Positions 8,798 to 30,756 of a stretch of 64,000 nt of DNA are shown here, piece after piece. The stretch is taken from NCBI GenBank assembly GCA_963754875.1, contig CAVWHO010000022.1, forward strand, positions 32,001 through 96,000. The letters are read 5' to 3'. The notes below the pieces were generated by a model. The model was not told the origin of the DNA, searched no databases, and saw nothing but the letters and a program-made list of their open reading frames with translations. The stretch's first letter is position 1, and every line of letters starts with the position of its first letter. The stretch is from Nitrospirota bacterium (lineage in GTDB: Bacteria > Nitrospirota > UBA9217). The translations under genes and the position numbers were made by a program.

Positions 8798-8976
8798 ATG
8801 ATCTGTGTGGATCAACCCATTAAGCGACCCCAACCCATAAGGGAAAAACGCTTTATCTATGCGGTCTTCCATGCACAACATACTATTACGACGCATCTCG
8901 TTTTTTGACACTTTTTTCACCGATCATAGGTGTACTTGATGGCCTATTAAATCAGTGATTAAAACGCAAGTCAAGC
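8798..8976. repeat. Rhs-cassette junction repeat A (core + arm), no intact tip attached
   Basis: ATGATCTGTGTGGATCA at 8798-8814, CATAAGGGAAAA 25 nt after the 13-bp core, TTACG, TGACACTTTT, ATCATAGGTGTA, CAAGTCAAGC. Confidence 0.85.
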
Positions 8977-9074
8977 AGTCTGATGATATTTGCACTTGAC
9001 TCAGAGCTGAAATTAGCTATAATACCTTAAAAGGTACTAATAATATCTTATCAGGTATTCATAATTGGAAGGAG

Positions 9075-9578
9075 GTGTTTTCAATGTCATTCGGGAAAAA
9101 CGTGGCGCGGTTCAGAAAAGAGAAAGGCTTGACCCAGGAGGATCTGGTTAAAAAGAGCGGAGTGGCGATCTCGCAGATCAGAAGGTACGAGGCAGACAAG
9201 TCCTCGCCTACCCTCGACGTGATCACTAAGTTGGCCAAGGCCCTGGGCGTTTCCATCGACGAGCTGGTGTTCGACAAGACTTCCGGGATCGCTGCAGGCA
9301 AGCTCATGGACCGGGAGCTTCTGGAGCAGTTTGAGATGGTGTCCGCGTTGAATGAGGATGAACGTCTGGCGGTTAAAAAAATACTAGAGGGGATTATCGT
9401 GAAACATCAGGTTGAGAAGATGATGAGGCCCGCAGTGGAGAAGTCCTGGTCGCAGCGGTTCCGGGAGATCACGGACAAGCTCGCGAAGGGCGCGAAGGGG
9501 TATTCACAGAAGGAGATCGACAAGGTGATCGATGAGGCGGTGGCTGCGGTCAGGACAAAAGAGCATGCCCACACCTAA
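9075..9578 (+). CDS. XRE-family HTH repressor with C-terminal antitoxin-like extension
   Basis: RKEKGLTQEDL..ISQIRRYE..PTLDVITKLAKALGVSIDELV; promoter TTGACT-16-TATAAT at 8996-9023; likely start ATG 9084. Confidence 0.85.
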   Translation: MFSMSFGKNVARFRKEKGLTQEDLVKKSGVAISQIRRYEADKSSPTLDVITKLAKALGVSIDELVFDKTSGIAAGKLMDRELLEQFEMVSALNEDERLAVKKILEGIIVKHQVEKMMRPAVEKSWSQRFREITDKLAKGAKGYSQKEIDKVIDEAVAAVRTKEHAHT

Positions 9579-10002
9579 GCTGAAGGCGGTTATCGATACG
9601 AGCGTGATGGTGAGCGTGGCCTTTGCCAGGGAAGGACTGACCAGAGAGATGCGGGACATGATCGCGGACGGGGCCTTTACGCTCGTTACGTCGAAGGCGA
9701 TCATGGCCGAGCTCTACCGCGTGCTACACTACCCTCACATTCAAAAACGGTTCAAGCCGTCGGAAGACGACATCAACGAGTTTATCGGCATGGTCATCGA
9801 GCGCTCGCTGATCACCAAGGGCCGCTACAGCCTCAAGAAGATCGCGGATGATCCGTCGGACGATATGTTCCTCGCCTGCGCGCTCGAAGCGAAGGCGGAC
9901 TTCATCGTCTCCCGCGATCCGCATATCAGGAACTTGAAGCAGTTCCACGGCGTGAAGATCATCGATGTGAAGGCATTCATGGAAAAGGCGAGGATGAAGT
10001 AG
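9565..10002 (+). CDS. PIN-domain putative toxin
   Basis: AVIDTSV..EL..DPSDDMFLACALEAKADFIVSRD PIN motifs; overlaps the upstream HTH gene. Confidence 0.85.
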   Translation: MPTPKLKAVIDTSVMVSVAFAREGLTREMRDMIADGAFTLVTSKAIMAELYRVLHYPHIQKRFKPSEDDINEFIGMVIERSLITKGRYSLKKIADDPSDDMFLACALEAKADFIVSRDPHIRNLKQFHGVKIIDVKAFMEKARMK

Positions 10003-10051
10003 AGCCTTCCGAAGCGGGCCGGTCAGTTCAATTCAATTTTATTTTACCCGT

Positions 10052-11182
10052 TTATTTTTTCTGAGATTTTATATTTTCTATCGCCGATTCTAGTAACTTT
10101 ACCATCCGCATTTTATCATCTTGCAGTTTCTTTTCAAATTCGTCCTTCCTCGAGCTATTTTTTAACCACGGATACGAGGTAGGAAGTACTTTTGCTGCAG
10201 CCAATGCAAGCGAGAGCTCCTTTAACGTCTTTTGCGTATCGCCTTTACCATCATAAGCACTCGCCACTGCTCCCCGAATATAAACTTCGGTTAAAGGTTC
10301 AATGTTCTTCTCAGTAATTAGAGAACTATAGAATTTTATTGCTCGCTCGAAATCGCCTGAATCTTTATAGCAGGAATTCAACATAGGAAAATAATAGGAA
10401 AAGTTAACAGAGGGGTCTAGCTTGATGACACTCTCATAAATGACTACTGATTTTCTGCAATCCGGCTTTATCTTAGCATATACTCGAGCAAGGTTTTCCA
10501 ACGATTCCCTGTCATCATGATAATTCTGAACTCGTCTTTCTAACCAATCGGCATAAGCTTTATCCTGGCTTTCCACCGAAGGTTCGTTTGTAGGAGTAAG
10601 GCCTTGAATGAACCAATCGACATCAGCTGCTTTATCAAGGACAGCAATTTGCGCAGATCGATCGATGGCCTGAAACACCATCGACACTGATATTACTGTC
10701 CGCGATTTAAGGCAAGCAATTCTTTTTTTAATAAGGTTCTGCGTAGCATCATGCACTTTGTCCCATGAAGATTCTTTGAAAGATACGATGATGGAATACT
10801 TCTCGCTGCCGTTGAACAGTGTTTTGTTAACGCAAACAGCAGCGATGTCGTTTCTATCGAAAGCGGGTTTCTTAGATATGAGGTAGGTTTTACCACTTTT
10901 GTCCGATACTGATTCAAATAACGATAAGGACTGTTTCTCAATATTCTCGTCGGCGACAGATGCAAACGAAAAATCAATATTGGCTCCGCCATAACAGTTC
11001 CTTATTAGTGTTTTTTCCCGAGCCGCATCTTCTTTGATGAGCTCAATAAGTTTTACGGGGTCAAATGGAGTACCATCTGTACGCGCGTTCTTTTGTGCGA
11101 TTTGATCCGAAGTTGTGCAGCTAATTATATTCACAAAAAAGAAAATAAAAAGCATTGTCTTCATTACTCTTGATCGTGTCAT
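10052..11182 (-). CDS. Lipoprotein with SecD-like periplasmic head and TPR-like repeats; immunity position of tip 1
   Basis: MKTMLFIFFFVNIISC lipobox-like; helical TPR-like C-half; directly downstream of tip 1. Confidence 0.6.
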   Translation of the reverse strand: MTRSRVMKTMLFIFFFVNIISCTTSDQIAQKNARTDGTPFDPVKLIELIKEDAAREKTLIRNCYGGANIDFSFASVADENIEKQSLSLFESVSDKSGKTYLISKKPAFDRNDIAAVCVNKTLFNGSEKYSIIVSFKESSWDKVHDATQNLIKKRIACLKSRTVISVSMVFQAIDRSAQIAVLDKAADVDWFIQGLTPTNEPSVESQDKAYADWLERRVQNYHDDRESLENLARVYAKIKPDCRKSVVIYESVIKLDPSVNFSYYFPMLNSCYKDSGDFERAIKFYSSLITEKNIEPLTEVYIRGAVASAYDGKGDTQKTLKELSLALAAAKVLPTSYPWLKNSSRKDEFEKKLQDDKMRMVKLLESAIENIKSQKK

Positions 11183-11247
11183 TGTTTATTCACCCCTTAT
11201 TTCCTAGGTCCTGACGTCATTCTGATCCTTCCAAGAGCAACATACTC

Positions 11248-11829
11248 TTATAAGTGACATGAGCAATTTCCAGATAGTGTGTATGGCCCATATGCTAAAA
11301 TGTTAGGATCTAGATTGCCAGATGTCCATGCCGATACGGAAATAAATTTGAGTGGTACTTTTGATATATACACACCATAGTCACCGCTTTTGCCGCACTC
11401 AAGCGTTGATTTTATATTATTAACGGCGTTTATAACTTGACCACCTACCTTCGTAGCAAGCATAAAATCGCCAAACGCTTCCAGGTTTTCTATTAAGCTT
11501 CCAAGATCTGGTCCTTCAGTCAATCCTAAAGGATCCATACGTCTGATCGGATTATTTCCCACGTACGGGAAAAGACTATTCATTCCTCCAATCAACCCCA
11601 TCGGATCAGACTCTATGTATCTCCCGATCACCGGATTATAGTCCCTGTAATAATTATAATTCAGCCCCGTCTCAACATCGTAATACTGTCCAGGGAAGCG
11701 GAGATTGTTTGTGATGGTATTGGTGGTGATGTTGACTTCACCGAACGGTTTGTAATCCGCAGCCCAGACAACAACCCCAGAAGAGTCCGTCATCTTCTGC
11801 GGAGTACCTAAATGATCTGTGTGGATCAT
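11248..11829 (-). CDS. Orphan Rhs C-terminal cassette (tip 1)
   Basis: IHTDHLGTPQKMTD..RFPGQYYD.ETGL.YNYYRDY.P..GRY..DP..DPLGL followed by a unique tip. Confidence 0.9.
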   Translation of the reverse strand: MIHTDHLGTPQKMTDSSGVVVWAADYKPFGEVNITTNTITNNLRFPGQYYDVETGLNYNYYRDYNPVIGRYIESDPMGLIGGMNSLFPYVGNNPIRRMDPLGLTEGPDLGSLIENLEAFGDFMLATKVGGQVINAVNNIKSTLECGKSGDYGVYISKVPLKFISVSAWTSGNLDPNILAYGPYTLSGNCSCHL

Positions 11830-11987
11830 CCCATACCGCGACTTCAGCGCATAAGGGAAAAACGCTGTATCTATGCGGTCTTGCGAGCATAACATCCTCT
11901 TACGCCACGCCCCGTTTTCTGACACTTTTCTTGCATATCATAAGTGTAGTTGGCCCATTTAATCATTGATTACAGAGCAAGTCAAGC
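11812..11987. repeat. Rhs-cassette junction repeat B
   Basis: ATGATCTGTGTGGATCAT at 11812; CATAAG at 11850; arm aligns with copy A through CAAGTCAAGC. Confidence 0.9.
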
Positions 11988-11999
11988 GATTATCAATAA

Positions 12000-12191
12000 G
12001 TGAGCGTTATCTGTCGCAGCGTGTCGACTCATGAGTTGGTGGGATTGGAGATCGGTGATAGCGGAAATAAAGAAACCCGCCTCTGGCGGCGGTTCAGCCA
12101 GGTGGAAAAGCTGCCGCCGCCGAAGCGTAAGCAGATCGTGCAGATTCTCGATGCCTTCCTGGGAAGTGAGAAGGCGAAGAAGGTTGGATAA
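12000..12191 (+). pseudogene. 3' remnant of an XRE repressor
   Basis: ..THELVG..RLWRRFSQVEKLPPPKRKQIVQILDAFL, HTH N-terminus missing; same position relative to the repeat as the intact 9075 gene. Confidence 0.6.
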
Positions 12192-12204
12192 GATACCATG
12201 CCAC

Positions 12205-12495
12205 CTATGGTCGATTTTTATCCTGATTAAACGGTTTATAAAAATAGGTGTAAAGAATAGCAATGATGATAGAAGCTATCATTGTCCGATAGATCCATTT
12301 TAATTGCGAGTCCTCTTGTTCAGTTAAATAAACGATCGTACCATGAATATTCAGAGGATAGGTTCTTTGAATGTCAGCCTGTGGCTGCCCAGGCCGCGTG
12401 TACGCGTAATGATAGTTTAAATATACATATAACCCCAGGGATACAAATATCACTGTCACAATTACGAACGCTATAGCTTTTTTGTACTTTCTCAT
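12205..12495 (-). CDS. Small 2-TM membrane protein, putative immunity for tip 2
   Basis: Two hydrophobic helices; immediately downstream of tip 2. Confidence 0.6.
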   Translation of the reverse strand: MRKYKKAIAFVIVTVIFVSLGLYVYLNYHYAYTRPGQPQADIQRTYPLNIHGTIVYLTEQEDSQLKWIYRTMIASIIIAILYTYFYKPFNQDKNRP

Positions 12496-12530
12496 GGGAA
12501 AACTCCATTGACGCAGTTTCACGAAGTTTA

Positions 12531-13265
12531 CTAATGACACGATGCGGTTCCAACAGGAGGAGAAGCGCCATTTGGATTTCCGAACACATTAAATAGCGGT
12601 GTAATATTCGTTCCTGTTATTGTTGTTGAACCACCAGCACTTAGGCCAGGACCGACTGTCACACCTCCGCCATGAACAGTTCCATTAGGGCTACTACCGG
12701 TAAAAGCGTCCCCCGAAGCATTTGGACCCCAGCCACCTCCGAGACTTACTTGATTAAATGGACCGGATAAATCATTAATGGTCTGAGCATTTGAACCACT
12801 TACACTTACCCCACCCGAAACACCGCCACCGGCACCCGCGCCGCCACCTCCGGTTGTATAAACACCTATATTGCCCGATCCATCAAAGGCGATGCCAGCC
12901 GAACCTGTAAAGGTAAATGGACCCACCTGTCCGGTTACAGTTATGCCGACTTGCACGGTAGTTAACCCCAACGGATCAATAAATCTGACTGGGTTATTTC
13001 CTACATAGCGGTAGAGGTTAATTCCGCCTCTTAAGCCAATTCTGTCAGCTTCGTTGTACCTGCCGGTATTTGTGTTCAAGCCCCTGAAGTAATTGTAGAG
13101 CGAGCCCGTCTCTGCATCGAAGTACTGACCTATGCCACGTAGGTTGTTCGTGATCGAACTGGTGATATTGTATGCTTCCCCGAATGGTTTAAAATCCGCG
13201 GACCACTGAACCGTCCCGTTTGAGTCCGTCATCTTCTGGGGAGTGTCAAGATGATCTGTGTGGAT
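12531..13265 (-). CDS. Orphan Rhs C-terminal cassette (tip 2, Gly-rich); no native start
   Basis: IHTDHLDTPQKMTD..GQYFDAETG..IDPLGL followed by a Gly/Val/Thr-rich tip. Confidence 0.9.
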   Translation of the reverse strand: MHTDHLDTPQKMTDSNGTVQWSADFKPFGEAYNITSSITNNLRGIGQYFDAETGSLYNYFRGLNTNTGRYNEADRIGLRGGINLYRYVGNNPVRFIDPLGLTTVQVGITVTGQVGPFTFTGSAGIAFDGSGNIGVYTTGGGGAGAGGGVSGGVSVSGSNAQTINDLSGPFNQVSLGGGWGPNASGDAFTGSSPNGTVHGGGVTVGPGLSAGGSTTITGTNITPLFNVFGNPNGASPPVGTASCH

Positions 13266-13388
13266 CAGCCCGTACCGCGTCACCGACCTTTAAAGGAAAA
13301 ACCCTTTAATAATGATGTGGTCTTCAGTGATATACAACCTCCTATGACACCACTCTTTTTTCGACACTTTTTTTAGCAATCATAAGTA
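13251..13388. repeat. Rhs-cassette junction repeat C (more diverged, truncated)
   Basis: ATGATCTGTGTGGATCA at 13251; GGAAAAAC, GACACTTTT, ATCATAAGT. Confidence 0.8.
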
Positions 13389-14044
13389 TCGGTGCTGGCG
13401 GTTAAGCCAAGTGGCGAAACGACGCCACCGAAGCGTAAACATCGCGTAGATCCTTGATGTGTTTCTGGGAAGTGACAAGGCGAAGAAGGCCGGTTGAAAG
13501 ACTGCGGTTCCTTCGGTCGGCCTTCTGCTTGAACATTATGAACACAATGAACACGAAAATCAGCGGCGTCGTTTTCTGCCGTTGGCTTGTTTGATTTGTC
13601 GGGCACGATGTTCCTTAATGATAATAGATAGTCGATAAAAAAGATCACAAGACTAAAAAATGAAAAAAGGATGCAGGTGCCCCATATAGCGCCGATGGAT
13701 TTTTGACAAGAATTTCCAGGATCTTTGGGATCGTAGAGAATGTCTATTGCTTGGCCTTCTTTGTAAACGCCGAATGGGTTTAGTTTTAAAAGTTCATATT
13801 CATTTCCAGTTGCATTATAAAACTTAATAATCGGAAAATTCGAAATATATGTGTCCCGCCACCCCCCGCGTCCACCTTCTATATTGTATGTAACTGGCTG
13901 ACTTCTAAACCCTTTCACGATCGCAACGGTAGGGATAGCCGCTCTCAGAAATAGAAGAGTCACAAAAAAGTGGTAAGCCGCTATGGTGAGAAATAGCAGC
14001 GCCAAAATGGTAGATGTTTTAACAGTAGCTCCTAAGATTCGCAT
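13373..14044 (-). CDS. DUF3592-like membrane protein (paralogue of 25833-26318)
   Basis: TM..PIIKF..G.EY..GQAIDILYDPKDP..TM pattern. Confidence 0.65.
   Translation of the reverse strand: MRILGATVKTSTILALLFLTIAAYHFFVTLLFLRAAIPTVAIVKGFRSQPVTYNIEGGRGGWRDTYISNFPIIKFYNATGNEYELLKLNPFGVYKEGQAIDILYDPKDPGNSCQKSIGAIWGTCILFSFFSLVIFFIDYLLSLRNIVPDKSNKPTAENDAADFRVHCVHNVQAEGRPKEPQSFNRPSSPCHFPETHQGSTRCLRFGGVVSPLGLTASTDTYDC
13395..13497 (+). pseudogene. Decayed copy of the XRE 3' remnant
   Basis: Nucleotide similarity to 12082-12191 (ccgaagcgtaa..ctgggaagtga.aaggcgaagaag). Confidence 0.55.
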
Positions 14045-14156
14045 TGATGCCCAAACCAACAATTGAGCAGACCTTTCCTCAACATTCCATAATGCGTGCT
14101 GATCCTATCTTTGCGTCTTTAGTCCATTTTTCTCCCGCAACGAGACCCATACACAT

Positions 14157-14609
14157 CTAATGTTCCTTGTGGTTTGCCATTTTTATAAAAAGCCAAATTA
14201 CTCCCATAAATATGAGCGCCGATAAAACCGGCATAATCAAAGCACTTATTTGTGTTCCAAGATCAGGAGCTTTCCAAAAGTTCCATAACCGTGAATTTAG
14301 CGCTAAGAAGATAGCAAGAGCTGGAAAACTATAATAAAAAGCTTCTTTTCTAAAAACATAAAAAAGAAGATAGCCAGAAATTGTCGCCGATATTAACGCT
14401 GAGATTGAAGTAGATATAATATTTAGACATATGGTCAAGATCAAGATAACTATCTCTGACTTTATCGTTGAAGCGCGCAGTGAGATAAAATCAAAGCTCC
14501 AGTTAAACAGTAAATGGTTTACATACCCAAAAACAAATCGGAAGATTAGCCCTATACAAAATGCATAGCACCAGGATATCAATTTATTTTTGCGGATTAG
14601 AGCAACCAT
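14157..14609 (-). CDS. Multi-TM membrane protein, putative immunity for tip 3 (paralogue of 26385-26867)
   Basis: Hydrophobic; start ATG 14609 just after the tip 3 stop. Confidence 0.65.
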   Translation of the reverse strand: MVALIRKNKLISWCYAFCIGLIFRFVFGYVNHLLFNWSFDFISLRASTIKSEIVILILTICLNIISTSISALISATISGYLLFYVFRKEAFYYSFPALAIFLALNSRLWNFWKAPDLGTQISALIMPVLSALIFMGVIWLFIKMANHKEH

Positions 14610-14622
14610 GCTTATCCTCTTA

Positions 14623-15216
14623 TTAATACATGTAGAATATCCACTTCCATTCAAGACAACAATCTTTAGGGGGAGCATGACAAACACCGGGTTCCTGCGG
14701 GCAGGGTTTTGCACAAACCCGCTTGAAGCTCCATATCTGCCCCGTTCTATCTCCCAAATTAAAATCGGTCAGACCGGTAGCAATACTGTTAAGCGATCCT
14801 GCCGCTCCCGCATTACCAGGATAACTGGATGGCCCCGATCCTGAAGTCGCGTCGTCTAATCCTTTTGAGTCAACTCGATTCATGGGACTATTCCTCACAT
14901 AGAGATAATCATGAAGATGGCCAGGAGTCATAACAAAAGCAGAGGGGACAAAATATGTTGCACGGTTGTGGATAAAGGGTAACAACAATGGGTCCGATTC
15001 CAGATAACGCCCAATCACAGGATTGTAGTCCCTATAATAATTGTAATTCAGCCCCGTCTCCGCATCGAAGTACTGCCCCGGGAATCTCAGGTTGTTCGTG
15101 ATCGTTGATGCGGTGACCGTAGCTTCGCCGAATGGTTTGTAGTCAGCAGACCAGACGACCGCGCCGGTTCCGTCCGTCATCTTTTGTGGGGTGCCAAGAT
15201 GATCTGTGTGGATCAT
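14623..15216 (-). CDS. Orphan Rhs C-terminal cassette (tip 3), close paralogue of the currently fused tip
   Basis: MIHTDHLGTP..DSKGLDDATSGSGPSSYPGNAGA shared with the 3' end of 26881-30756. Confidence 0.9.
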   Translation of the reverse strand: MIHTDHLGTPQKMTDGTGAVVWSADYKPFGEATVTASTITNNLRFPGQYFDAETGLNYNYYRDYNPVIGRYLESDPLLLPFIHNRATYFVPSAFVMTPGHLHDYLYVRNSPMNRVDSKGLDDATSGSGPSSYPGNAGAAGSLNSIATGLTDFNLGDRTGQIWSFKRVCAKPCPQEPGVCHAPPKDCCLEWKWIFYMY

Positions 15217-15383
15217 CCCGTCCAGCGGCCTCGGCTCATATGGAAAAAACGCCGTATCTATGCAGTCTTCCGAGCACTATATCCTATTACGACACCTCGC
15301 CGATTAAGCCTCTTTTTTCAAAGATCGTAGGTGTACTTGGATGTGATGGTCTATTAAATCATTGATCAAAACTCAAGTCAAGC
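15199..15383. repeat. Rhs-cassette junction repeat D
   Basis: GATGATC-tgtgtg-GATCATC (7-bp arms); CATATG at 15237; CAAGTCAAGC at end. Confidence 0.9.
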
Positions 15384-15465
15384 GATTAAGTATGTATTGA
15401 CTCTGGAGGGGTGTGAGGAACTAAAAAAATCACGCGAGCATAGTGCTCCGTAATTTTGCAGGAAG

Positions 15466-15852
15466 TTACCATTCCGCTCTAACGGGATACTTCGTGATAC
15501 GAGGATCGGGTGTGAGGATAATGTGCCCGCCAGCAATCGCCTGGCAGACGAGTATTCGGTCGAAGGGGTCTTTGTGATAATCGGGGAGACGGGAAAGCTG
15601 CAATACTGAGGCTTCGTCCAAAGGCAAAGAGTCAATCTCGTGGCGCGTGCGCCACTTCTTGATAAATTCGTGCGCAGGCTCGGGCAACGGTAATTTGCCC
15701 AGTTTGTTTTTGACGATGATCTCCCACGCGGACGCTACGCTTAAGTAAACCTCGTTGCCTGGATCGGAGAAGAGATGACGCGCAGTATCAGATAGCTCAG
15801 GACTGCCAGATGCAATCCACAGGAACGTACAGGTATCCAGAAGAAGGTTCAC
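15466..15852 (-). CDS. vapC: VapC-family PIN toxin
   Basis: LLLDT..LW..SVASAWEI..K..GKL..HKDPFDRILVCQA. Confidence 0.9.
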   Translation of the reverse strand: MNLLLDTCTFLWIASGSPELSDTARHLFSDPGNEVYLSVASAWEIIVKNKLGKLPLPEPAHEFIKKWRTRHEIDSLPLDEASVLQLSRLPDYHKDPFDRILVCQAIAGGHIILTPDPRITKYPVRAEW

Positions 15853-16094
15853 GATTCTTCACCGCGAAACTGGGCAAGTGTTTCCTCGGGCAGATCTTCG
15901 AAGAACGAGGCAGGCACCTTGAATTTCCCTTTTGCCAAGCCGATGGAGCGCGGCTTGTGCCGATGAACCGCGAGCGGACGCAGTTCAGCAACCGGCTGGT
16001 TCCGCCGACACAGCAAGACGGTTTCCCCATGCTCTACTTCTTCGACGTAGTGAGACAAATGAGTTTTGGCTTCGTGCATATTTATTTTTTTCAT
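15849..16094 (-). CDS. Phd/YefM-family antitoxin
   Basis: INMHEAKTHLS..VE.GE.V...RRN.PVAEL; overlaps the toxin start. Confidence 0.9.
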   Translation of the reverse strand: MKKINMHEAKTHLSHYVEEVEHGETVLLCRRNQPVAELRPLAVHRHKPRSIGLAKGKFKVPASFFEDLPEETLAQFRGEES

Positions 16095-16139
16095 GGTTCA
16101 ATACTAACCTAAGTAGTGGACTAAGTCAAGAAGGGATTT

Positions 16140-17072
16140 TCAATCCCGGTCCTTCTCCCTTGGGTGGCATTTGGTGTGGACTTCTTTGAGATCAGCGATA
16201 CTGACTGACGTATAAATCTGGGTCGTTTCGAGTGATGCATGCCCAAGCATCTCCTGGATGTGATGTATGTTGGCCTTGTTTCTGAGCATAAGCGTTGCGC
16301 ACGTGTGCCTGAAGGTATGAGGCGATATATTCTTCTTGATCTTCGTTTTTTTGCCGTAAATCTTCACCAGCTCCCATACCCTGTTTTTTGATAGTTTAGT
16401 CCCGTTAATGGTGAGGAATAGATGATTGTCCGTCGGGTCTTTAACGAGCATGGGTCTTACCGCCTTTACGTAGTTTTCTATGTATCTGCATGCGATCTTG
16501 CCGATCGGGACGACACGGTCCTTGCTTCCTTTTCCACTGTTCACTCTGACGTAGCCCTCGTAATAGTCCACATCCGCAAGCTGCAGGTTAATCAGTTCGT
16601 TCCTTCTGATCCCGGTTGAGTACAAGACCTCGAGGATGGTCCGGTCCCGGTATCCAGTAGCGGTTTTTGTGTTGGGTGCATGGATAACCTTCTTCGCTTC
16701 CGGTCCCGTCAAAATCGAGCGGGGCAGTCTCCTGGGCGTCCTGGCATAGGATATGTCTTTGGCCGGATCGCTCACGAGGTAGTTCTTTTCGACGAGGAAG
16801 CGGAAGAAGCCTTTCAAGGCCTTTAAGGTGTTGTTCTGGTGGAAGACGCTATTTGGTTCCCCCCGGCTGTTGACCATCTCGTAAATGTGAGCCTGGTAAT
16901 CATGTACGATTTCTTTTGCGACCTTGCTGACTTTGGTGACGCCTTGCTCTTCGATCCAAGCGAAGAAGCGGTTAAGAAAATAGATATGTCTCTTGATCGT
17001 TTCGGGGGCATAGTGAATGACCGTAAGGTGCTGGCGGTATGTTTCTTTTAATGTATTAAAGTCGTTATTCAT
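16140..17072 (-). CDS. XerC/D-like tyrosine recombinase 2
   Basis: YSTGIRRNE, GKGSKDR, PHTFRHT, MLGH..TTQIY. Confidence 0.95.
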   Translation of the reverse strand: MNNDFNTLKETYRQHLTVIHYAPETIKRHIYFLNRFFAWIEEQGVTKVSKVAKEIVHDYQAHIYEMVNSRGEPNSVFHQNNTLKALKGFFRFLVEKNYLVSDPAKDISYARTPRRLPRSILTGPEAKKVIHAPNTKTATGYRDRTILEVLYSTGIRRNELINLQLADVDYYEGYVRVNSGKGSKDRVVPIGKIACRYIENYVKAVRPMLVKDPTDNHLFLTINGTKLSKNRVWELVKIYGKKTKIKKNISPHTFRHTCATLMLRNKANIHHIQEMLGHASLETTQIYTSVSIADLKEVHTKCHPREKDRD

Positions 17073-18129
17073 GATGAGGCTGCCCCTTCTTAAACCGGAT
17101 GTCGGGAACAGCGTCTACTCGCTCGTCTTTATCACGTTCTCTCGGATGGCTCATGTCATGGGTCTTCTTTACGTCAACGCCGGCAACGCGGAGGTAGATG
17201 TTCGTTGCGCTTAAGTTCGAGTGACCGAGCATCTTCCGGACTGCGGTGATGTCGGCGCCGTTTCTGACAAGCTCCGTTGCGAACGTATGCCGAAAGGTGT
17301 GGGGCGTCACTTTCTTTGTAATCCCGGCTTTCCTTGCATAGTCTCTCACCATGAGCTCAATCACCTGCTTGGAGAGCGGTCCGTTAAAGCGGCTGACGAA
17401 AAGGTTCTTAACGGCTTTGTTCTTTTTCGTATGTTGTGGACGCACGCGTGTGAAGTAGTCTTTTAAAAACCTTACCGCATGTTTGCCGAGAGGTATAAAT
17501 CTGTCCTTGGAAAATTTGCCTTTAACCCGTATCAGACCGCCCTGGAGATCGCAGTCGAAGATGGTAAGCTTTATCAGCTCTTCAAGCCTGATGCCAGTTG
17601 AGTAGAGGACTTCGAGCATGGCACGGGCACGAATTCCGCTGATAGTGTTTAGCCTCGGCTGTGCTAGGATCCTCCTAACCTCGACTTCGCTCAGGACATT
17701 TCTCGGGAGACGTGTTTCTTTCTTCGGCTCTTTGATGTGCTCAGCCGGGTTGATGAGGATCGTACCGCTGTCTTCGAGGTATTTGAAGAAGCGCTTCATC
17801 GCCCTGGTCTTTGTGCAGATTGTGCCAACGCTGTACTTGTTGTTCGTCCGCGTGCTTGTGTGGTCCATGATCTTGAGCTGGTACGCATGGAGATGATCGC
17901 GGGTAACGCGCTTCACGTCTGTTATGCCACGTTCCTTGAGATAGGCAAACAGGCCAGGGAGGTGTTCGCAGTAAGCCGCAATACTGGCAGGAGAGTAATT
18001 CTTCACCTTCATGTGTTCGGTGAACCTGGAGAGATGATGGTCAAAGCCGTTCATGATTCGCCTCGTTATATATGTATGATCGATGTTTTTCACGCATCCG
18101 GTATATATGCTTTTCTTTAAAACCGCCAA
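17065..18129 (-). CDS. XerC/D-like tyrosine recombinase 1 (true start probably MNGFD)
   Basis: YSTGIRLEE, KGK..KDR, PHTFRHT, MLGH..TNIY. Confidence 0.95.
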   Translation of the reverse strand: MAVLKKSIYTGCVKNIDHTYITRRIMNGFDHHLSRFTEHMKVKNYSPASIAAYCEHLPGLFAYLKERGITDVKRVTRDHLHAYQLKIMDHTSTRTNNKYSVGTICTKTRAMKRFFKYLEDSGTILINPAEHIKEPKKETRLPRNVLSEVEVRRILAQPRLNTISGIRARAMLEVLYSTGIRLEELIKLTIFDCDLQGGLIRVKGKFSKDRFIPLGKHAVRFLKDYFTRVRPQHTKKNKAVKNLFVSRFNGPLSKQVIELMVRDYARKAGITKKVTPHTFRHTFATELVRNGADITAVRKMLGHSNLSATNIYLRVAGVDVKKTHDMSHPRERDKDERVDAVPDIRFKKGQPHHE

Positions 18130-21525: not shown

Positions 21526-21543
21526 AATAGTCTCCTTTTGCAG

Positions 21544-23085: not shown

Positions 23086-23166
23086 CCAGCTCTCCTTAGA
23101 AGCGAATTTTAAGGAGCAGGATATACGAATTTGTAGAATTTACCCAGCGTCGTTTAATGCGTTAGA

Positions 23167-23286
23167 GGGTGCCTGAATTGGAGCGGAACACCGGCCCGAA
23201 TTGCAGTGGAATGGGTGCCTGAATTGGAGCAGAACAGGTGCCTGAATTGCAGTGGAATGGCTGCCTGAATTGGAGCAGAATACTCA
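23167..23286 (-). repeat. IS21 left end: five 23-bp repeats starting TGAGTATTC
   Basis: Alternating GCTCCAATTCAGGCA / ACTGCAATTCAGGCA units at 23-bp period upstream of istA. Confidence 0.85.
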
Positions 23287-23990: not shown

Positions 23991-24192
23991 TCGCTCTCCC
24001 CGAGATCTGTGATGGCTTCACTGTATTGATTTTGTCGAAGAATAAAAGGCCCGAAATGAATCTTGAAAAGAAAGGATCAAAGTACAGGAATTAAATCAAG
24101 GATGTCATTGCGGCTGTGGCTCATAAGGGGGAAGCCCTTTCTCAATGTGGCCTTCAAAGGGCAACATACTCAAGGTAAAGGTCATATAAACT

Positions 24193-24858
24193 TCATTGGT
24201 TTTCAACAGAGACTTTTACTTTTCTGTACAAGAAGAACAATAGAATTACCATAAAAAGAGTAAGTAGAAGATGGACCATATTTGCTTGCCGCAACGTTGC
24301 GTCGATCATCTTTCCAATCTGAGTAGAGTTTAAGCCGCCTGCGGCATTCAGAGAACCGGTTGCAATAATCTTATCGACTTGATGTTTATAATATCTACCC
24401 AGAATCAGAGTTGGCACGTAAAACAAAATAGCTAATAGGATAAAGTATATTGGTATCTTCTTGCCGATAAGCTTGTTTTTCTCGTTGTCTAAGCCAGTAA
24501 AGTAAATAAGAATAGACCAGAGAGACGCGGCCAACGAAAATAGCACGAGTATCCTTGTAGCATACTCTGTTAAAACAGTTGGCGCGAGTTCTATTAAGAA
24601 ATAAATCTGTGCCGCTAAAGCGAGAGGCAATAAAACGCCACCAATTATTTTCATTTTAGGGTGTATGTTTCGGATCATCGCGGCCAAAAGAACTCCCATG
24701 GTGCTTAAAAGTAATTTTGATAATAGACTGATTAAGGCCCAAGCCGTGATCGAATAGGCACCTGCAATTTTCAACCATACGACTGAGACCAGACCATATG
24801 ATAGGATACAAAATAAGAAGTAATCCCTGATTTGCCGTTTGAAAGATTCAGAAGTACT
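24193..24858 (-). CDS. Multi-TM membrane protein, putative immunity for tip 4
   Basis: About six hydrophobic helices; directly downstream of tip 4. Confidence 0.65.
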   Translation of the reverse strand, partial: STSESFKRQIRDYFLFCILSYGLVSVVWLKIAGAYSITAWALISLLSKLLLSTMGVLLAAMIRNIHPKMKIIGGVLLPLALAAQIYFLIELAPTVLTEYATRILVLFSLAASLWSILIYFTGLDNEKNKLIGKKIPIYFILLAILFYVPTLILGRYYKHQVDKIIATGSLNAAGGLNSTQIGKMIDATLRQANMVHLLLTLFMVILLFFLYRKVKVSVENQ

Positions 24859-24874
24859 CATTTCATTTATCCTA

Positions 24875-25555
24875 TTATCGTGCAGCTTCACACGTCTCAT
24901 AAAATCGTTGGCGCAACATACCGCAATATGCCTCACCAGTCCGAAGACCAGGATCTTCTATGCCAGACGGGACAGTGAAGCAAACAATCGTTAACCCGGT
25001 TCCGATGATACCACCTATGATGGGATTCTGTGTCGCTACGCCAGCTCCGACACCGGCTCCAATGGCAAGTATTACACATGTAGTTGTGGCCATGCGCTGA
25101 GGTCCTTGTCGCATACGAGTCATACAATCATTATACGCCGCATCTGCCTGTGCTTGACATGTATCTGGTTGGCAAGCTCCTGTACCGCCGCTTACCTGCA
25201 ATCCTGAAGAGTCCATGAGATTCACAGGATCGTTTGCGGCATAAAGATAATCGTGAAGTTTGCTTGGAGTCTTTGTAAAATAAGGTGGGACAAAATAGCT
25301 TCGCCCTCGGTAGACAAATGGAAAAGACAATGGATCACTCTCAATGTACCTCCCGATCACCTGGTTATAGTCTCTATTAAGGTTATAGTTCAGTCCTGTC
25401 TCAGCATCATAGTACTGCCCGGGGAATTTGAGGTTGTTCGTGATCGTTGATACAGTGATCGTCGCTTCCCCGAAAGGTTTGTAGTCCGCGGACCATACTA
25501 CGGTCCCTGATGAATCCGTCATCTTTTGTGGCGTCCCTAAATGATCTGTGTGGAT
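24875..25555 (-). CDS. Orphan Rhs C-terminal cassette (tip 4, Cys plus Gly-rich hydrophobic hairpin)
   Basis: IHTDHLGTPQKMTD..FPGQYYDAETGL..MDSSGL followed by a unique tip. Confidence 0.9.
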   Translation of the reverse strand: MHTDHLGTPQKMTDSSGTVVWSADYKPFGEATITVSTITNNLKFPGQYYDAETGLNYNLNRDYNQVIGRYIESDPLSFPFVYRGRSYFVPPYFTKTPSKLHDYLYAANDPVNLMDSSGLQVSGGTGACQPDTCQAQADAAYNDCMTRMRQGPQRMATTTCVILAIGAGVGAGVATQNPIIGGIIGTGLTIVCFTVPSGIEDPGLRTGEAYCGMLRQRFYETCEAAR

Positions 25556-25679
25556 CAACCTGCCCTGCGCTTCCGGACCATAAGAGAAAAGCCCTGCATC
25601 CATGATGGGTTTCGGGTGTTACGTATACTTACGACACTCTGCGTTTTTTGACACTTTTCCAAGAAATCATAGGTGTAGA
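25541..25679. repeat. Rhs-cassette junction repeat E
   Basis: ATGATCTGTGTGGATCA at 25541; CATAAG at 25579; TTACGACAC, TGACACTTTT, ATCATAGGTGTA. Confidence 0.9.
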
Positions 25680-25685
25680 TTCTTG

Positions 25686-25783
25686 GGTTCAGCCAGATAA
25701 AAACTCTCGCGCCGAAGCGTAAGCAGATCGTGCAGATTCTCGATGCGTTCCTGGGAAGTGAGAAGGCGAAGAAGACCGGATGA
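25686..25783 (+). pseudogene. Third XRE 3' remnant
   Basis: Near-identical to 12091-12191 (PKRKQIVQILDAFLGSEKAKK). Confidence 0.6.
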
Positions 25784-25832
25784 ATAACTACAGTTCCTTC
25801 GGTCGGCCTTCTGCTTGAAACATTATAAAATA

Positions 25833-26318
25833 TCAGCGGCGGCGTTTTTTGCCGTTGGCTTGATTGATTTGTCGGGCACCACGTTCCTTAATGATAATAG
25901 ATAGTCGATAAATAAAAAACACAAAACTTAAGAATGAAAAAAGGATGCAGGTACCCCAGACGGCTCCAATGGTTTTTTGATAAGAATTTCCAGGATTCTT
26001 TGGATCGTAGAGAATGTCTATTGCTTGGCCTTCTTCGTACAAGCTGAACGGGGTTAGTTTTGAAAGTTCGTACTCATTTCCATTGGCGGTATTAAACTTA
26101 ATAATAGGAATATTAAATAAATATGTGTCTCGTCTACTTCCATATCGGCTTTCAGTATTCGATGTTACTGACTGACTTCTAAACCCTTTCACCAGAGCAA
26201 CGGTGGGCACAGCCGCTCTCAGAAATAAAACAGTAGAAATAAAGTGGTAGGCTGCTATGGTTAGAAATAGCAGCGCCAAAATGGTAGATGTTTTAACAGC
26301 AGTTCCTAAGATTCGCAT
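25833..26318 (-). CDS. DUF3592-like membrane protein
   Basis: Paralogue of 13373-14044 with a different 3' reading frame. Confidence 0.65.
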   Translation of the reverse strand: MRILGTAVKTSTILALLFLTIAAYHFISTVLFLRAAVPTVALVKGFRSQSVTSNTESRYGSRRDTYLFNIPIIKFNTANGNEYELSKLTPFSLYEEGQAIDILYDPKNPGNSYQKTIGAVWGTCILFSFLSFVFFIYRLSIIIKERGARQINQANGKKRRR

Positions 26319-26384
26319 TAATACCCAACCAACAATTGAGCAGTCCCTTCCACGGCCAAGAGATCGGTTACACCCGTTCAAATT

Positions 26385-26867
26385 CTACCGACCGACTCCA
26401 GACAAGTTATTATTATCGCCGTTCCCCATGCGCTTGATAAGATACTTTTGAAAAAGCCATACTACAGCTAAAAAAACGAAAGCTGCCAAGAACGGTCCCA
26501 TCAAAGCGCTTATTTGCATTCCAAGATCAGGAGCTTTCCAAAAATTCCATAAATGGGAATTTAGCACAAAGAAGATAGCAAGAGCAGGAAGACTATAATA
26601 AAGAGCTTTCTTTCTAAAAACATAAAAAAGAAGATAGCCAGGAATTATCGCCGATATTAACGCTGAGGTTGAATCAAATATAATATTTACAAATATAGTC
26701 AAGATAAATAGCTGTGACTTTAGCGTTGAAACGCTTCGCGAGATAAAATCAAAGCTCCAGATCCACAGAAAATGTTTTACATACCCTAAAGAAAATCGGA
26801 AAATTAGCCCCATACACAATGCATAGCACCAAGACATTAATTTATTTTTGTGGATTGAAGCAATCAT
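26385..26867 (-). CDS. Multi-TM membrane protein, putative cognate immunity of the full-length Rhs
   Basis: Starts 14 bp after the Rhs stop; paralogue of 14157-14609. Confidence 0.65.
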   Translation of the reverse strand: MIASIHKNKLMSWCYALCMGLIFRFSLGYVKHFLWIWSFDFISRSVSTLKSQLFILTIFVNIIFDSTSALISAIIPGYLLFYVFRKKALYYSLPALAIFFVLNSHLWNFWKAPDLGMQISALMGPFLAAFVFLAVVWLFQKYLIKRMGNGDNNNLSGVGR

Positions 26868-26880
26868 GTTTATCCCCGTT

Positions 26881-29800
26881 TTACCACTCGTAGAAGATCG
26901 TCTTCCATTCACAACATTCACTCTTCGGAGCGGGACCATGACAAGCAGCCGGTTCCAGCGGGCAGTATTTTACACAAACTTGCTTGAAACCCCATGTCGA
27001 GTACGGATCGCCCATATTAAAAAAGATGAGGCCGGCAGCATTGTTAAGCGCTCCTGACGCTCCCGCATTACCAGGATAACTGGATGGCCCCGATCCTGAA
27101 GTCGCGTCGTCTAATCCTTTTAAGTCAATCCGATTCATGGGACTATTCCCCACATAGAGATAATCATGAAGACGGCCAGGAGTCATAACAAAAGTTGAGG
27201 GGACAAAATATGTTGCACGATTGTGGATAAAGGGTAACAATAATGGGTCCGATTCCAGATAACGCCCAATCACCGGATTATAGTCCCTATAGTAGTTGTA
27301 ATTCAGCCCCGTCTCTACATCATAGTACTGCCCAGGGAAGCGGAGATTGTTGGTGATCGTTGACACGGTGACGGTCGCTTCCCCAAAGGGTTTGTAATCC
27401 GCCGCCCACACAACAGCCCCGGTCGAGTCCGTCATCTTCTGGGGTGTACCTAAATGATCTGTGTGGTAATAATAGGTATTGCCATTTGCTATCATCGCCA
27501 TCGGCTGACCATTCAAGTATACATATTCCGTTGTAATAATTCCAGCACTATTTGACTCTGCTATGATCTGGCCGCTCTGACTGTAATGAAAGACCGTCAC
27601 GGTGCCGTTTACATCCTTCTTCACCCGCTGCCCATTGCCGTTATACGTGTAGTACGCCGTGGTCGTGCCATTATTTACCTGGACCAGCCTCTGATTCTGA
27701 TTATATATATACTGGCGGGAGCCTTCTATCGTGGTATTTCCGTCGTTATCAAATCCAAATGATATGTTGTTGGCACTCGTGAGCTTATTTGTATTCGGGG
27801 CATAGGTATAAGTGTTCAATCCTTCTGCCAGCCTGTTGCCGACTCCATCATAGGTCCAGCCGAGGCTGCCCCAAGATCCCATCGCGCTCGTTAAGCGATC
27901 CAATGCGTCGTAGCCAAAGGTTTTGTTTTTCGTGGGATCGAGTATGTCGGTGATGTGCTGGATATTGGCATTTGCGTCATACTGATCGTAGCTGAGATTC
28001 ATGACAGCACCCGTGGCAATGGACGTGATACGATACTGATTGTCATAATTGATGGTGCCGGCGATGCCGTTGCCGTACGTCAGCGATGACATCCCGCCGA
28101 AAGGCTTATAAGTGACATTCGTGGCCAGGTTCGCGGCATTGTTCAGGACGCTTGTTGCGCGGTCGTTCGTGTAGTTATACGTGATTACGCGGCCCGACGG
28201 ATAGGTCATGGTCTTTAGATTGCCGTTTTGATCGTAGGTGTATTGGGTAATGTACTGAACGCTGCTGATGGTTTTGGTCTCTTTCCTGACCTGCCCTTTC
28301 GGCGTGTACTCGTAGCTTGTTACTCCACTCGCATCAGTCATGGAGCAGAGCCTGCCCTTGCCGTTCACGCAGGTATCATATGTGTATGCAGTATCGGTAT
28401 CCGATGGGAAATCGATGGTCGTCAGTCTGTTTAAAGCATCGTAATGATAGGAGATCGTGACGCCCTTGGCATCGGTCTTTGAAGTTAAATTTCCTGCGGG
28501 GTCGTACTGGTAAGTCGTCGTTCCCGTGTCCGGGGATATCACCTGATATACTCTGCCGCGGTCGTCATATTTATAAATGGTGGCATTGTTGTTCGCATCA
28601 GTAACTTTCGTGAGATTGTTTATCGTATTGTATTCATAGGACGTGGTAATCGTACCCGGCTGAACAACCGATGTCAGCCGACTTAATGCATCGTAATTGT
28701 ATGAAGTCGTATTATTTTTAGGGTCTTTGGCCGTATTCCGGTTTCCTAAGGCATCATAGGTATATTGAGTAAACGTCGAATCGGGATTAATTATCTTGGA
28801 AACCCGATCCAGGGCATCATACGAATAGCTTAATGTCTTCTGGAGGCTCCCCGAACTGTCCCTGATCTGCTCCGTCAACTTATTGCCCTCGGAATCGTAG
28901 GTGTAGTTTATCGTGTTGTTCAGGCTGTCGTTTATGGTGATAAGCTTCCCCATCGAGTCGTAAGTATACGAGATCGTGTTTCCTTCGGGAAGCGTGATGT
29001 GATCGATCTTATTCGCCCCGCCGCAGGACTGACATCCGCCTGCTACGTAGAAATACTGCGTCGCGCCAGTATCGCCGGGAGCTTTTATTGTCAGCACCCT
29101 GCCGAGAGTGTCATAGGTATAAGTTGTTGCATTACCGTTGGGGTCCGTTGCCGTCTGAGGATTGCCAAGCTGGTTGAAGTTGGAATACGTCGTCGTGCCC
29201 ACAAGCGGCTGATCTACGCCGTTAAGATTGCCCGTGGCTGGGTCGTAATAGTACGTGGTCACGTCGTTGACGTCGGTCCTGGGGCCGTCGATGGTTGATA
29301 TCTTGCCGCTTGCATTATATGTATAGCTTGTGGTGTAGGAATAGGGCGTTCCATCTCCGAGCAGGCCGGTTTCCGTGGTCGTAAGCAGGTTGCCATTCGT
29401 CTCGTCGTAGGTTTTTGTGGTGACCCTGATGTTGCCGGGATCAACGACGCTCGTTACTGTTTCCGTAGTCACGAGACTGAAGTTAGGTTCGTAGGTGTAG
29501 GTAGTCGTCTTTTCTTGCGGCGTGCCCGCGGCTTCGGTTCTGCTGAGCACGTTGCCCTTGCTGTCGTAACTGTTGATTAAGGTAGTTGAAATCCCCGTTG
29601 TTATGTCAGTATGGATTTCCTGGAGTATCCGGGTGTTGTTGTCCCGGACGTAGGTGGTGACGTTGCCGAAGGTGTCGGTGACCTGTACCGGCATGCCGTT
29701 CGTGTCGAACTGGACGGCGCGGGTCTGGGTATTCAGGAGATTGCCGCTCATGTCTTTGATCAAAGTGGTCATCGTGGTCTGCTGATAAGGGATGATGTAT

Positions 29801-30756
29801 GAGAAGTCGATCTCGCCCGTGCCATGAGTCTGTTTGACGACTTTTCCTGTGGAATCATAGGTGTTGATGTAGGGGCCTTGTCCTTCATCGATGGATGTCA
29901 GGAGATGGTTTCTGGTCGGATCAGTATATCCATAGGCCGAGTTGCCGGCGGGCCCCGCGACTGAGGTGAGGTTGCCGATGCTGTCGTGATTGTAGCTCAC
30001 GGTCCGGCCGGTGCTGTCGGACAGCCCCGTAAGCCTGCCGGTCGAGGTGTCATACTGCAGGTCCACTGACGCTCCGGTGGCGTTGCCCGATGCGTCTCTT
30101 TCTTCGATCCTGCTCAGGTGGTAGTCGTAGGCCACGATGACAGGAGTGTTTTGATCTACATTTGCCGGCAGCAATCCCCAGAGAAAATCTCGTGTAGCGG
30201 CCCGGTAGAAAAAGACGAGCGAGTTCCCTTTAGCATCGGCCATGCTCATGAGCCTGCCCTGGCTGTCGTATTTTTCCGTACCGCCGTACTTGTCGGTGTA
30301 GGTGTAGGTGCCGTCAGCGTTCTGCATAAGCTCGCCCGTGGCTCCTGCGGTGCTGGTGTACAGGCCTGTTACCGAGTTCCAGGTGAAGTGCATTTTGCCT
30401 CCGCACTCCCGCCGCACCGTGGCCGAGTTGTCGGCATAGATGTAGAGCCGCTTGTCGTAGTTTATGGCCCAGCCGTAACCCAGGGGGCTGTCATAAGTTG
30501 TTTTGCTATTGTAGCTCCGCGTGACCCGGATGGAAAAAAGATTTCCAAGGGTAAGGTCCGTGCTCGGGGAAAACGTCTCCATGCCGGATAGCAGGCTTAT
30601 GGGCTTGCCGCCAAAGGCGGGGTTGGTGCCCGCTGTCTTGCCGGATTCGCAAAAGAGGTCGGGCAGGTTGTCCTGATCTGCGATAGAAGCGTAAACAACT
30701 GATGAATACAGAATAAGAAGTGCTACGACTATCGATTTATATGCTTCCCGCAGCAT
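26881..30756 (-). CDS. Full-length Rhs/YD-repeat protein with N-terminal signal peptide
   Basis: Hydrophobic leader ending VYA; DUF6531-like RSYNS..LGYGW; many YD repeats; YYHTDHLGTP core; DLKGL cleavage motif; short Cys-rich tip. Confidence 0.95.
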   Translation of the reverse strand: MLREAYKSIVVALLILYSSVVYASIADQDNLPDLFCESGKTAGTNPAFGGKPISLLSGMETFSPSTDLTLGNLFSIRVTRSYNSKTTYDSPLGYGWAINYDKRLYIYADNSATVRRECGGKMHFTWNSVTGLYTSTAGATGELMQNADGTYTYTDKYGGTEKYDSQGRLMSMADAKGNSLVFFYRAATRDFLWGLLPANVDQNTPVIVAYDYHLSRIEERDASGNATGASVDLQYDTSTGRLTGLSDSTGRTVSYNHDSIGNLTSVAGPAGNSAYGYTDPTRNHLLTSIDEGQGPYINTYDSTGKVVKQTHGTGEIDFSYIIPYQQTTMTTLIKDMSGNLLNTQTRAVQFDTNGMPVQVTDTFGNVTTYVRDNNTRILQEIHTDITTGISTTLINSYDSKGNVLSRTEAAGTPQEKTTTYTYEPNFSLVTTETVTSVVDPGNIRVTTKTYDETNGNLLTTTETGLLGDGTPYSYTTSYTYNASGKISTIDGPRTDVNDVTTYYYDPATGNLNGVDQPLVGTTTYSNFNQLGNPQTATDPNGNATTYTYDTLGRVLTIKAPGDTGATQYFYVAGGCQSCGGANKIDHITLPEGNTISYTYDSMGKLITINDSLNNTINYTYDSEGNKLTEQIRDSSGSLQKTLSYSYDALDRVSKIINPDSTFTQYTYDALGNRNTAKDPKNNTTSYNYDALSRLTSVVQPGTITTSYEYNTINNLTKVTDANNNATIYKYDDRGRVYQVISPDTGTTTYQYDPAGNLTSKTDAKGVTISYHYDALNRLTTIDFPSDTDTAYTYDTCVNGKGRLCSMTDASGVTSYEYTPKGQVRKETKTISSVQYITQYTYDQNGNLKTMTYPSGRVITYNYTNDRATSVLNNAANLATNVTYKPFGGMSSLTYGNGIAGTINYDNQYRITSIATGAVMNLSYDQYDANANIQHITDILDPTKNKTFGYDALDRLTSAMGSWGSLGWTYDGVGNRLAEGLNTYTYAPNTNKLTSANNISFGFDNDGNTTIEGSRQYIYNQNQRLVQVNNGTTTAYYTYNGNGQRVKKDVNGTVTVFHYSQSGQIIAESNSAGIITTEYVYLNGQPMAMIANGNTYYYHTDHLGTPQKMTDSTGAVVWAADYKPFGEATVTVSTITNNLRFPGQYYDVETGLNYNYYRDYNPVIGRYLESDPLLLPFIHNRATYFVPSTFVMTPGRLHDYLYVGNSPMNRIDLKGLDDATSGSGPSSYPGNAGASGALNNAAGLIFFNMGDPYSTWGFKQVCVKYCPLEPAACHGPAPKSECCEWKTIFYEW

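Follow-up and report, generated by a model that had tools for sequence, protein, structure and literature searches.

Since the first descriptions of arrays of orphan Rhs tips, it has been an open question how polymorphic toxins acquire new C-terminal tips and still keep the old ones. In its accessible portion, Jackson et al. 2009 (PMC2935791) proposes that Rhs C termini are displaced by homologous recombination through a hypothetical circular intermediate, and its authors state that no integrase is known with Rhs. The standing model is one of RecA-type exchange via a hypothetical circle; the reading set out here names an enzyme, a site, and an element. It concerns a 64,000-nucleotide stretch of the genome of Nitrospirota bacterium (GCA_963754875.1, contig CAVWHO010000022.1, positions 32,001 to 96,000), hereafter called the window, in which a full-length Rhs gene (26881..30756, minus strand; 1291 aa, with DUF6531, YD repeats, the Rhs core, and the current tip, G) is followed by a series of orphan tips separated by repeated sites. 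Judged from sequence comparison, these are very probably the recombination sites of integrative elements that carry tyrosine recombinases and target Rhs genes, together with mini-cassettes derived from such elements by deletion.

The initial annotation of this DNA, made from sequence alone, located six copies of a 13-mer that reads HTDH on the minus strand, and all six are exact (8798, 11812, 13251, 15199, and 25541, copies A to E, and 27454, the copy inside the gene of tip G). Its core-to-core spacings of 3014, 1439, 1948, 10342, and 1913 bp are likewise correct. With up to two mismatches allowed, seven matches occur against 1.41 expected, a number reached in 0 of 100 shuffles. The Rhs homology of tips B to E ends base-precisely at the His codon, as had been claimed: the five codons just upstream score −6 to −9 in these tips against the Rhs body, compared with 32 for the gene itself. 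Copies A to E run on instead into a palindrome and an arm, and copy G into the Rhs body. The inverted arms of the palindrome, around a 6-bp spacer, are perfect over 5, 6, 5, 7, and 5 bp in copies A to E and over 1 bp in the gene copy. The longer arm that follows the core is real in A to E, with pairwise identities of 62 to 77%, and a box 25 nt past the 13-mer reads CATAAG in A, B, and E and CATATG in D and is missing from C.

Parts of that description needed correction. Since spacers vary from locus to locus, the conserved unit is not the 13-mer. The unit proper is an inverted-repeat site with an 8-6-8 plan together with an arm, and this combination marks the right end of the element. The arm, earlier put at about 130 to 170 bp, exists but extends over 135 to 190 bp beside the 8-6-8 site. 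Site A precedes a decayed tip, with 14 open codons counted from the spacer compared with 191 to 243 in tips B to E. The caveat that the nearby KMTD codons are also conserved holds, in that all five intact copies share the K and T codons of KMT, along with several others, and codon identity was for that reason given no weight as evidence.

The same kind of site was surveyed in 20 Rhs regions from family members and in 80 metagenome loci round Xer2 homologues. An arm profile gave 69 matches, from which five cut by contig ends and two without a core were dropped; 43 of the remaining 62 sites belong to the training set of the profile and 19 lie outside it. Sorted by the Rhs codons that they enter, the 62 sites comprise 27 HxDH, 27 NNP, two xxKG (both in YD repeats), two xDP, two HHDN, one DYNP, and one NSNNN. 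The most symmetric 8-6-8 placement within 8 bases coincides with the arm-projected position in 62 of 62 cases, ties being settled towards that position. Mean dyad symmetry is 6.39 of 8 (6.6 for the 19 sites outside the training set), compared with a median of 1.9 for other geometries and a mean of 1.74 for the cores in 31 Rhs bodies. A pattern search independent of the profile returned 23 HxDH-type palindromes in 9 of 64 genomes and none in the control, and 20 of the 23 were arm linked.

The two halves of the sites vary together. In every class but one of the seven, DYNP, the left halves agree best with right halves from their own class (own-class match 6.06 for HxDH, against at most 5.11; 5.25 for xxKG, 6.25 for xDP, and 8.0 for HHDN), and across the seven motifs the element-side half-site changes so as to mirror the Rhs-side half. 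The spacer begins on an in-frame codon in 58 of the 62 sites, the other four being decayed distal tips. Base-precise HxDH breakpoints, for which a survey of related loci had been suggested, were found, all 27 HxDH arm sites breaking at one codon.

Tyrosine recombinases need matching spacers for strand exchange. All six spacers in the window are identical, spacers are uniform in six of eight multisite HxDH loci, and 41 of 47 within-locus pairs agree, compared with 0.28 after shuffling. The uniform loci include one on a second contig of the same genome (C16), which carries an Rhs gene 68% identical to that of the window and, downstream, an arm split by an insertion sequence; the core spacer there differs from that of the window and equals that of the C16 Rhs gene. 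Arrays of three to six sites occur in L048, L050, L065, L113, and L117, and the window holds five units. The final tip is short in five of the nine loci examined, as expected if new units enter at the Rhs gene. Two of these arrays, L113 and L117, consist of an Xer pair and, behind it, five to six short cassettes of the NNP class, the most integron-like layout found.

Read in gene direction, a full element opens with a 3′ Rhs fragment that starts at a fixed codon, followed by a presumed immunity gene, a repressor gene in divergent orientation, a primase gene, one Xer gene or two, an optional toxin-antitoxin pair, and the arm. This gene order, with the arm ending in the element-side half-site, recurs across relatives in the fetched family and metagenome loci. 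An arm lies 3′ of xer2 in 16 of the 26 metagenome loci with sufficient flank (at least 1300 nt downstream of xer2), including 14 of 14 loci at 62% identity or above. Trees were built for Xer2 (39 rows, by a careful method) and Xer1 (33 rows, by a quick method) from 37 loci with a labelable site or Rhs core plus two outgroups. In both trees, a single clade (100/99; SH-like approximate likelihood ratio test [SH-aLRT], 100) unites nine HxDH-linked rows, including the window, and contains no other class; the arm is downstream in six of the nine and exclusively upstream in two, and the ninth has an HxDH Rhs core alone. Both trees also pair the two xDP rows, and the NNP rows do not form one clade. 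Because the rows are kin, this result is an association and not a demonstration of repeated coevolution.

A phylum-wide search at a strict threshold returned 3 of 401 genomes, the source genome among them, and a scan of the genome collection with the single Xer2 protein gave one short locus. One Xer2 homologue, at 64% identity, carries the label Nitrospirota in its source. Viral contigs yielded no close relative, the best of 47 viral loci having 34% identity over most of its length. Terminal repeats of 15 to 200 nt were absent from 80 of 80 metagenome contigs, and self-comparison of 30 of these contigs showed tandem diverged units, not circles. One region (L082:860-8700) contains two tandem elements whose right ends are 92% identical over ~1 kb and whose sites belong to different classes (NNP and EDP), which suggests either rapid retargeting or tolerance. 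An isolated HxDH-type core with the proximal third of an arm was also seen at L210 (G036:C5, near 233666), with no Rhs match nearby.

In the window, the array begins at the core site of the Rhs gene (27452..27473, minus strand, as are all features listed below unless marked otherwise), which is of the attL/attB type and nonpalindromic, with a Tyr-codon left half, the spacer CACACA, and the right half GATCATTT. Behind tip G lie its presumed immunity gene (26385..26939), so called from position only, without a family match and paralogous to the gene after tip D; a gene for a DUF3592-like membrane protein carried as cargo of unit G-E (25833..26381); and a 3′ remnant of an element repressor gene of the XRE family (about 25690..25783, plus strand), which abuts the arm of site E (25539..25690; arm and 8-6-8 core, attR/attP type). 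Orphan tip E (24875..25552; 225 open codons from the spacer) is followed by its presumed immunity gene (24193..24936), which encodes a membrane protein without a family match, and by a seventh, coreless arm piece (24108..24171), probably the broken right end of a former mini-unit. The next open reading frame (23583-23990; 135 aa) has a CxxC zinc-ribbon-like start and no family match and occupies the position expected of the repressor and the 5′ end of the primase gene.

The recombinase-bearing part of the array follows. An IS21-family insertion (20653..23286; istA and istB, with a 6-bp target duplication and five more near-identical copies in the genome) cuts the 5′ end of the primase gene (18197..20652), which is succeeded by xer1 (17065..18129), xer2 (16140..17072), a Phd/YefM antitoxin and PIN toxin pair as element cargo (15466..16094), and site D (15197..15384), where a promoter-like box, an arm, and a core with 7-bp perfect arms mark the right end of this element. 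Xer1 and Xer2 both retain the catalytic motif residues R-K-H-R-H-Y. The primase contains a Toprim domain and a C-terminal domain that resembles PF27228 clusters, and a search with its C-terminal half found no significant solved relative; that the primase replicates a circular form is a guess. The window's own element is damaged: the first ~95 residues of the primase (the zinc finger) are gone, and no repressor adjoins it. With its primase truncated in this way and interrupted by IS21, this copy is probably not self-sufficient.

Beyond site D come tip D (14623..15210; 195 open codons), a close paralogue of tip G; its presumed immunity gene (14157..14714); and, as cargo of unit D-C, a paralogue of the DUF3592-like gene (13373..14062; 80% DNA identity over 300 nt, with no Pfam match of its own). 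Site C (13249..13497; repressor remnant, arm, and core) leads to the glycine-rich tip C (12531..13262; 243 open codons) and its presumed immunity gene (12205..12540). Site B (11810..12192) comprises a repressor remnant (about 12084-12192, plus strand), a promoter-like box, an arm, and a core, and it leads to tip B (11248..11823; 191 open codons), a presumed immunity gene encoding 376 aa with a weak SecDF P1-head match (10052..11182), and, as cargo of unit B-A, an RstR-like repressor and a PIN gene (9075..10002, plus strand). This repressor is related to repressors that adjoin element primases elsewhere. The distal end of the array is site A (8796..8981), with a promoter-like box, an arm, a core, and then the decayed tip. 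The toxin and immunity roles of these genes are presumed from their positions, and family searches found no match between the window tips and any toxin family.

Over 1880 nt, units G-E and D-C share 79% identity, which establishes the order within a unit as tip first and arm last. The tips and cargo of the remaining units are unrelated beyond the Rhs core. Because three of the small units (B, C, and E) retain the 3′ end of the repressor gene, the small units look like deletion derivatives of the full element, and we infer that they would still be excisable.

Distant relatives with a single Xer offer a comparison of empty and filled targets. Plasmid records with recombinases of 35 to 42% identity include two small circles that hold only a repressor, a primase, one XerC-like gene, SymE, Rhs tips, and small genes. 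The sites of these relatives follow the same plan, with a 6-bp spacer on the DP codons of DPIG and an element half that mirrors the IG codons. At least 80% of one such unit is present in 44 of 5426 Escherichia coli genomes. E. coli S10 carries two elements in tandem at its ansP-vgrG-rhs locus, where the Rhs gene has a one-base frameshift at the element junction. The last displaced tip of S10 was matched from exactly the first spacer base in 3 of 60 cases among the matches listed, and the two of these three that were examined are both empty alleles with that tip on an Rhs body. Aligned with the filled allele (L201), these empty alleles (L202 and L203) resume after a gap of about 15.8 kb, precisely at the first base of the spacer; for the first of them, the right flank is 99.8% identical from the spacer on and the left flank 99.4%. 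In two other strains, the element end of S10 was found at a secondary site behind an immunity gene and outside an Rhs core, again joined at the spacer. A circular record of 11.3 kb from Lonsdalea holds two units, each beginning at the spacer, and has no Rhs-body match, a layout that would suit an excised circle. Several related copies are also present on Leptospira plasmids; a 13-kb circular record from Leptospira noguchii (L196) carries a related primase and recombinase and has no Rhs match, and the Leptospira copies may use another target.

The sequence of events that these observations suggest would start with the element as a circle, in which the arm and half-site are joined to the element's own tip (attP). 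The element's Xer proteins, bound on the arm, would recombine attP with the matching Rhs codons across the 6-bp spacer, so that the Rhs body would take the incoming tip in frame and the old tip and its immunity gene would be moved behind the arm. There, transcription of the displaced immunity genes could be maintained by a promoter-like box that many arms carry at their far end. Over repeated rounds a polar array would accumulate, its oldest tip decayed and in last place, and deletions from the repressor gene to the arm would produce mini-cassettes. As the left junction resembles an empty target and the right junction resembles the site of the circle, the same reaction, taking place between the Rhs site and any of the arm sites downstream, would cut out the interval and return a stored tip to the gene; the empty allele in E. 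coli has the form expected of such an excision. The promoter-like box lies 155 to 190 nt before the spacer in 24 of 60 arms, including those of A, B, and D, against a background of 0.4%, with a motif that was chosen after inspection. A generic promoter scan gave 33 hits versus 26.4 ± 4.8, no excess over chance, and did not list the arm boxes. A box resembling the commonly given consensus for integration host factor is present in 16 of 60 arms (background, 3.9%) and in some of them overlaps, and cannot be distinguished from, the promoter-like box. Between primase and xer1, five loci have an inverted, weakly arm-like stretch (L004:1207-1279, L065:4471-4604, L070:4656-4723, L088:171-238, and L095:5473-5540) that may be an operator for autoregulation of the recombinases.

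The initial annotation had proposed site-specific, in-frame tip exchange at a core within the HxDH codons, and this proposal gains support from the covariation of half-sites across seven motifs, from Xer clades that track the motif and spacers that match within a locus, and from the empty and filled alleles of distant relatives with their junction at the spacer. In the alternative following Jackson et al. (2009), tips would move by RecA-type recombination in the Rhs core, the arm would be a promoter and translation-start module, and the primase-Xer element a vehicle or passenger. This would accommodate the 60 to 100 codons of common core after each site, the occurrence of armless orphans, and the persistence of arrays without an element Xer. 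It predicts variable breakpoints, however, and these were seen only in six armless orphans, compared with the fixed codon of the HxDH arm sites. A TTG, ATG, or CTG stands in frame two codons before the His in 27 of 27 HxDH sites, as a translation start would, but the palindrome itself dictates this triplet, GTG is never found in that position, and no start is encoded in the half-site of the NNP class. The promoter-like box fits a promoter module, with the reservation already made about the choice of motif, whereas the left halves that vary in step with seven Rhs motifs, the Xer clades that track the motif, and the E. coli insertion joined at its spacer outside an Rhs core speak against this alternative, and we consider it improbable.

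A role for the host's chromosomal XerCD, with the sites acting as dif-like modules or CTX-type elements and the element Xer genes doing something else, has less to recommend it still. The spacer is 6 bp long, as dif is generally described, the repressor is RstR-like, and some arrays lie in genomes with only host-type Xer matches. Yet the half-sites, compared by eye with the familiar dif consensus, do not resemble it, they vary by class in step with the phylogeny of the element Xer proteins, and the arm follows xer2 in each of the 14 close loci. Least probable of all is that one ancestral element end was duplicated in tandem and then diverged to give the window array, its sites being fossils of a single event. 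The similarity of units G-E and D-C, the six identical spacers, and the damage to the element would suit such an origin; arms only 62 to 77% identical beside identical cores, unrelated tips and cargo in the other units, and the recurrence of arrays with other spacers and cargo in other genomes speak against it.

Several observations weigh against the interpretation of the sites as targets of Rhs-directed integrative elements. The recombination steps are deduced from sequence comparison, in which the gene order, the 8-6-8 site, the in-frame junction, and the empty and filled alleles are directly seen, and the toxin and immunity roles rest on position, the tips having no toxin-family match. The dyad axis is sharp and the spacer length is not, with spacers of 6, 8, and 4 bp scoring 6.39, 6.02, and 5.89. 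The left half on the Rhs side lacks palindromy, so an asymmetric capture of the target has to be assumed. Spacers are mixed in two of eight loci (G032 and L065), and shared ancestry or gene conversion could also be a source of uniform ones. The six armless orphan tips with variable breakpoints, from five loci of the same family, show that the classical homologous route also operates. Arm arrays occur in G032, G050, and G021, where the element primase and Xer were not found; element loss is the simplest reading, although host XerCD may have acted instead. Of the 12 loci below 60% Xer identity, only 2 had an arm. A single Xer (about 38 to 39% identity) is present in the E. coli and Lonsdalea relatives, which show no detectable arm homology, and because the arm profile does not detect them, their empty and filled alleles serve as evidence by analogy. 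A Shigella circle is one period of a tandem array, which homologous recombination or assembly could yield. No circle or junction read was found for the source genome, for which the sole run found holds 0.06 of the region's words, from contigs of relatives; it contains no joint at a core and has no bearing either way.

Other genes flank the array. Past its last site, a three-gene block (1789-8377) includes two large tyrosine-recombinase-like proteins of 861 and 873 aa. These were considered as the agents of exchange (3171-8377) and rejected, since among the fetched loci they recur only near the Rhs region of L053, at 31% identity, and no arm was found there. Upstream of the Rhs gene, 31585-40965 encodes a beta-helix/FlgD-Ig surface protein of 3126 aa with near-identical 768-bp repeats and 222-bp repeats; a large gene and then a small cysteine-rich gene upstream of Rhs are also found on C16 and in L010. 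Farther to the right, a region low in G+C contains MksE/DUF3584 (Wadjet-like condensin) and restriction-modification genes (47148-58337), and a tRNA-Leu(GAG) gene near its right end (62256-62340) is a possible island boundary.

A dedicated enzymatic route appears to exist for a tip swap long ascribed to general DNA repair. A recombinase family that moves among seven coding motifs with matching half-sites provides a natural series on how tyrosine recombinase specificity changes, and since the same design is present at the vgrG-linked rhs locus of E. coli, in empty and filled alleles, direct testing is possible in a laboratory host. The broadest form of the proposal is a dedicated, retargetable warhead-exchange system that extends from this lineage to enterobacteria, in which self-replicating recombinase elements and the mini-cassettes derived from them are mobilized, in trans and in cis, at a single site embedded in codons, cells import new Rhs tips and re-arm any stored tip by excision, and the target codon shifts as recombinase and half-site coevolve; we hold the case for and against it to be evenly balanced.

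The literature, judged by titles and the openings of abstracts and with few subscription papers covered, gave no description of the element or site. The accessible portions of Steele et al. 2021 and Koskiniemi et al. 2014 name no site-specific mechanism, and those of Jurenas 2021, PMC13515810, and PMC13556189 contain nothing relevant to either; in Van Houdt 2012, the text matching "rhs" refers to catalytic motifs. A passage in 10.64898/2026.07.13.738213 refers to Martinkus et al. 2026 (Curr Biol) on Xer-dependent systems located next to Rhs poly-immunity arrays, and that work may overlap with the element described here. Zhang et al. 2012 (PMC3482391) noted XerC/D-like genes beside immunity arrays and suggested that they aid accumulation; the part available names no site, element, tip exchange, or primase. 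The rAID-1 clusters of Bacteroidales, described by Ross et al. (10.1101/471110) as immunity-gene arrays behind one recombinase and recognized by >44% identity to the Bacteroides fragilis rAID recombinase together with co-directional immunity genes only, are similar in placing an XerD-family recombinase beside immunity-gene arrays with repeated intergenic motifs. They differ in gene content, and the available description mentions no toxin-tip fusion, Rhs-internal target, or primase. The displacement model of Jackson et al. (2009), as far as its accessible text goes, shares polar arrays of displaced tips, a proposed circle, and an old tip shunted downstream, whereas the family in the window has breakpoints fixed at a dyad site and an attached recombinase module.

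The initial annotation called the array integron-like. It does work like an integron, with repeated sites between cassettes, one proximal entry site, a promoter-like box facing the cassettes, and arrays without a recombinase, but strictly speaking it is not one. Folding 23 arms to a consensus gave no pairs beyond the five of the core, with no compensatory change and no attC-like hairpin, and a fold of the arm as RNA or as an attC-like structure was rejected on that ground. The window recombinases score 121 and 124 bits against TIGR02249 (IntI), far below its cutoff of 265; their best model, the XerC-like PRK01287, also scores below its own cutoff. The insertion site lies inside a protein-coding gene and makes a fusion, and the recombinase travels within a unit.

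Tyrosine-integrase islands, such as those at dusA and trmE, are a class of elements that enter a gene and supply a replacement 3′ end. Like them, the elements described here have an attP with an arm, a crossover inside codons, a displaced gene end at attR, and tandem accretion. The differences are that the family here has shifted between no fewer than seven motifs within a single gene family, that many members have a recombinase pair, and that the replacement end is a different toxin-type domain instead of a copy of the old end. The system fits the class of gene-targeting tyrosine-recombinase elements, as one in which the replacement end brings a new toxin-type domain.

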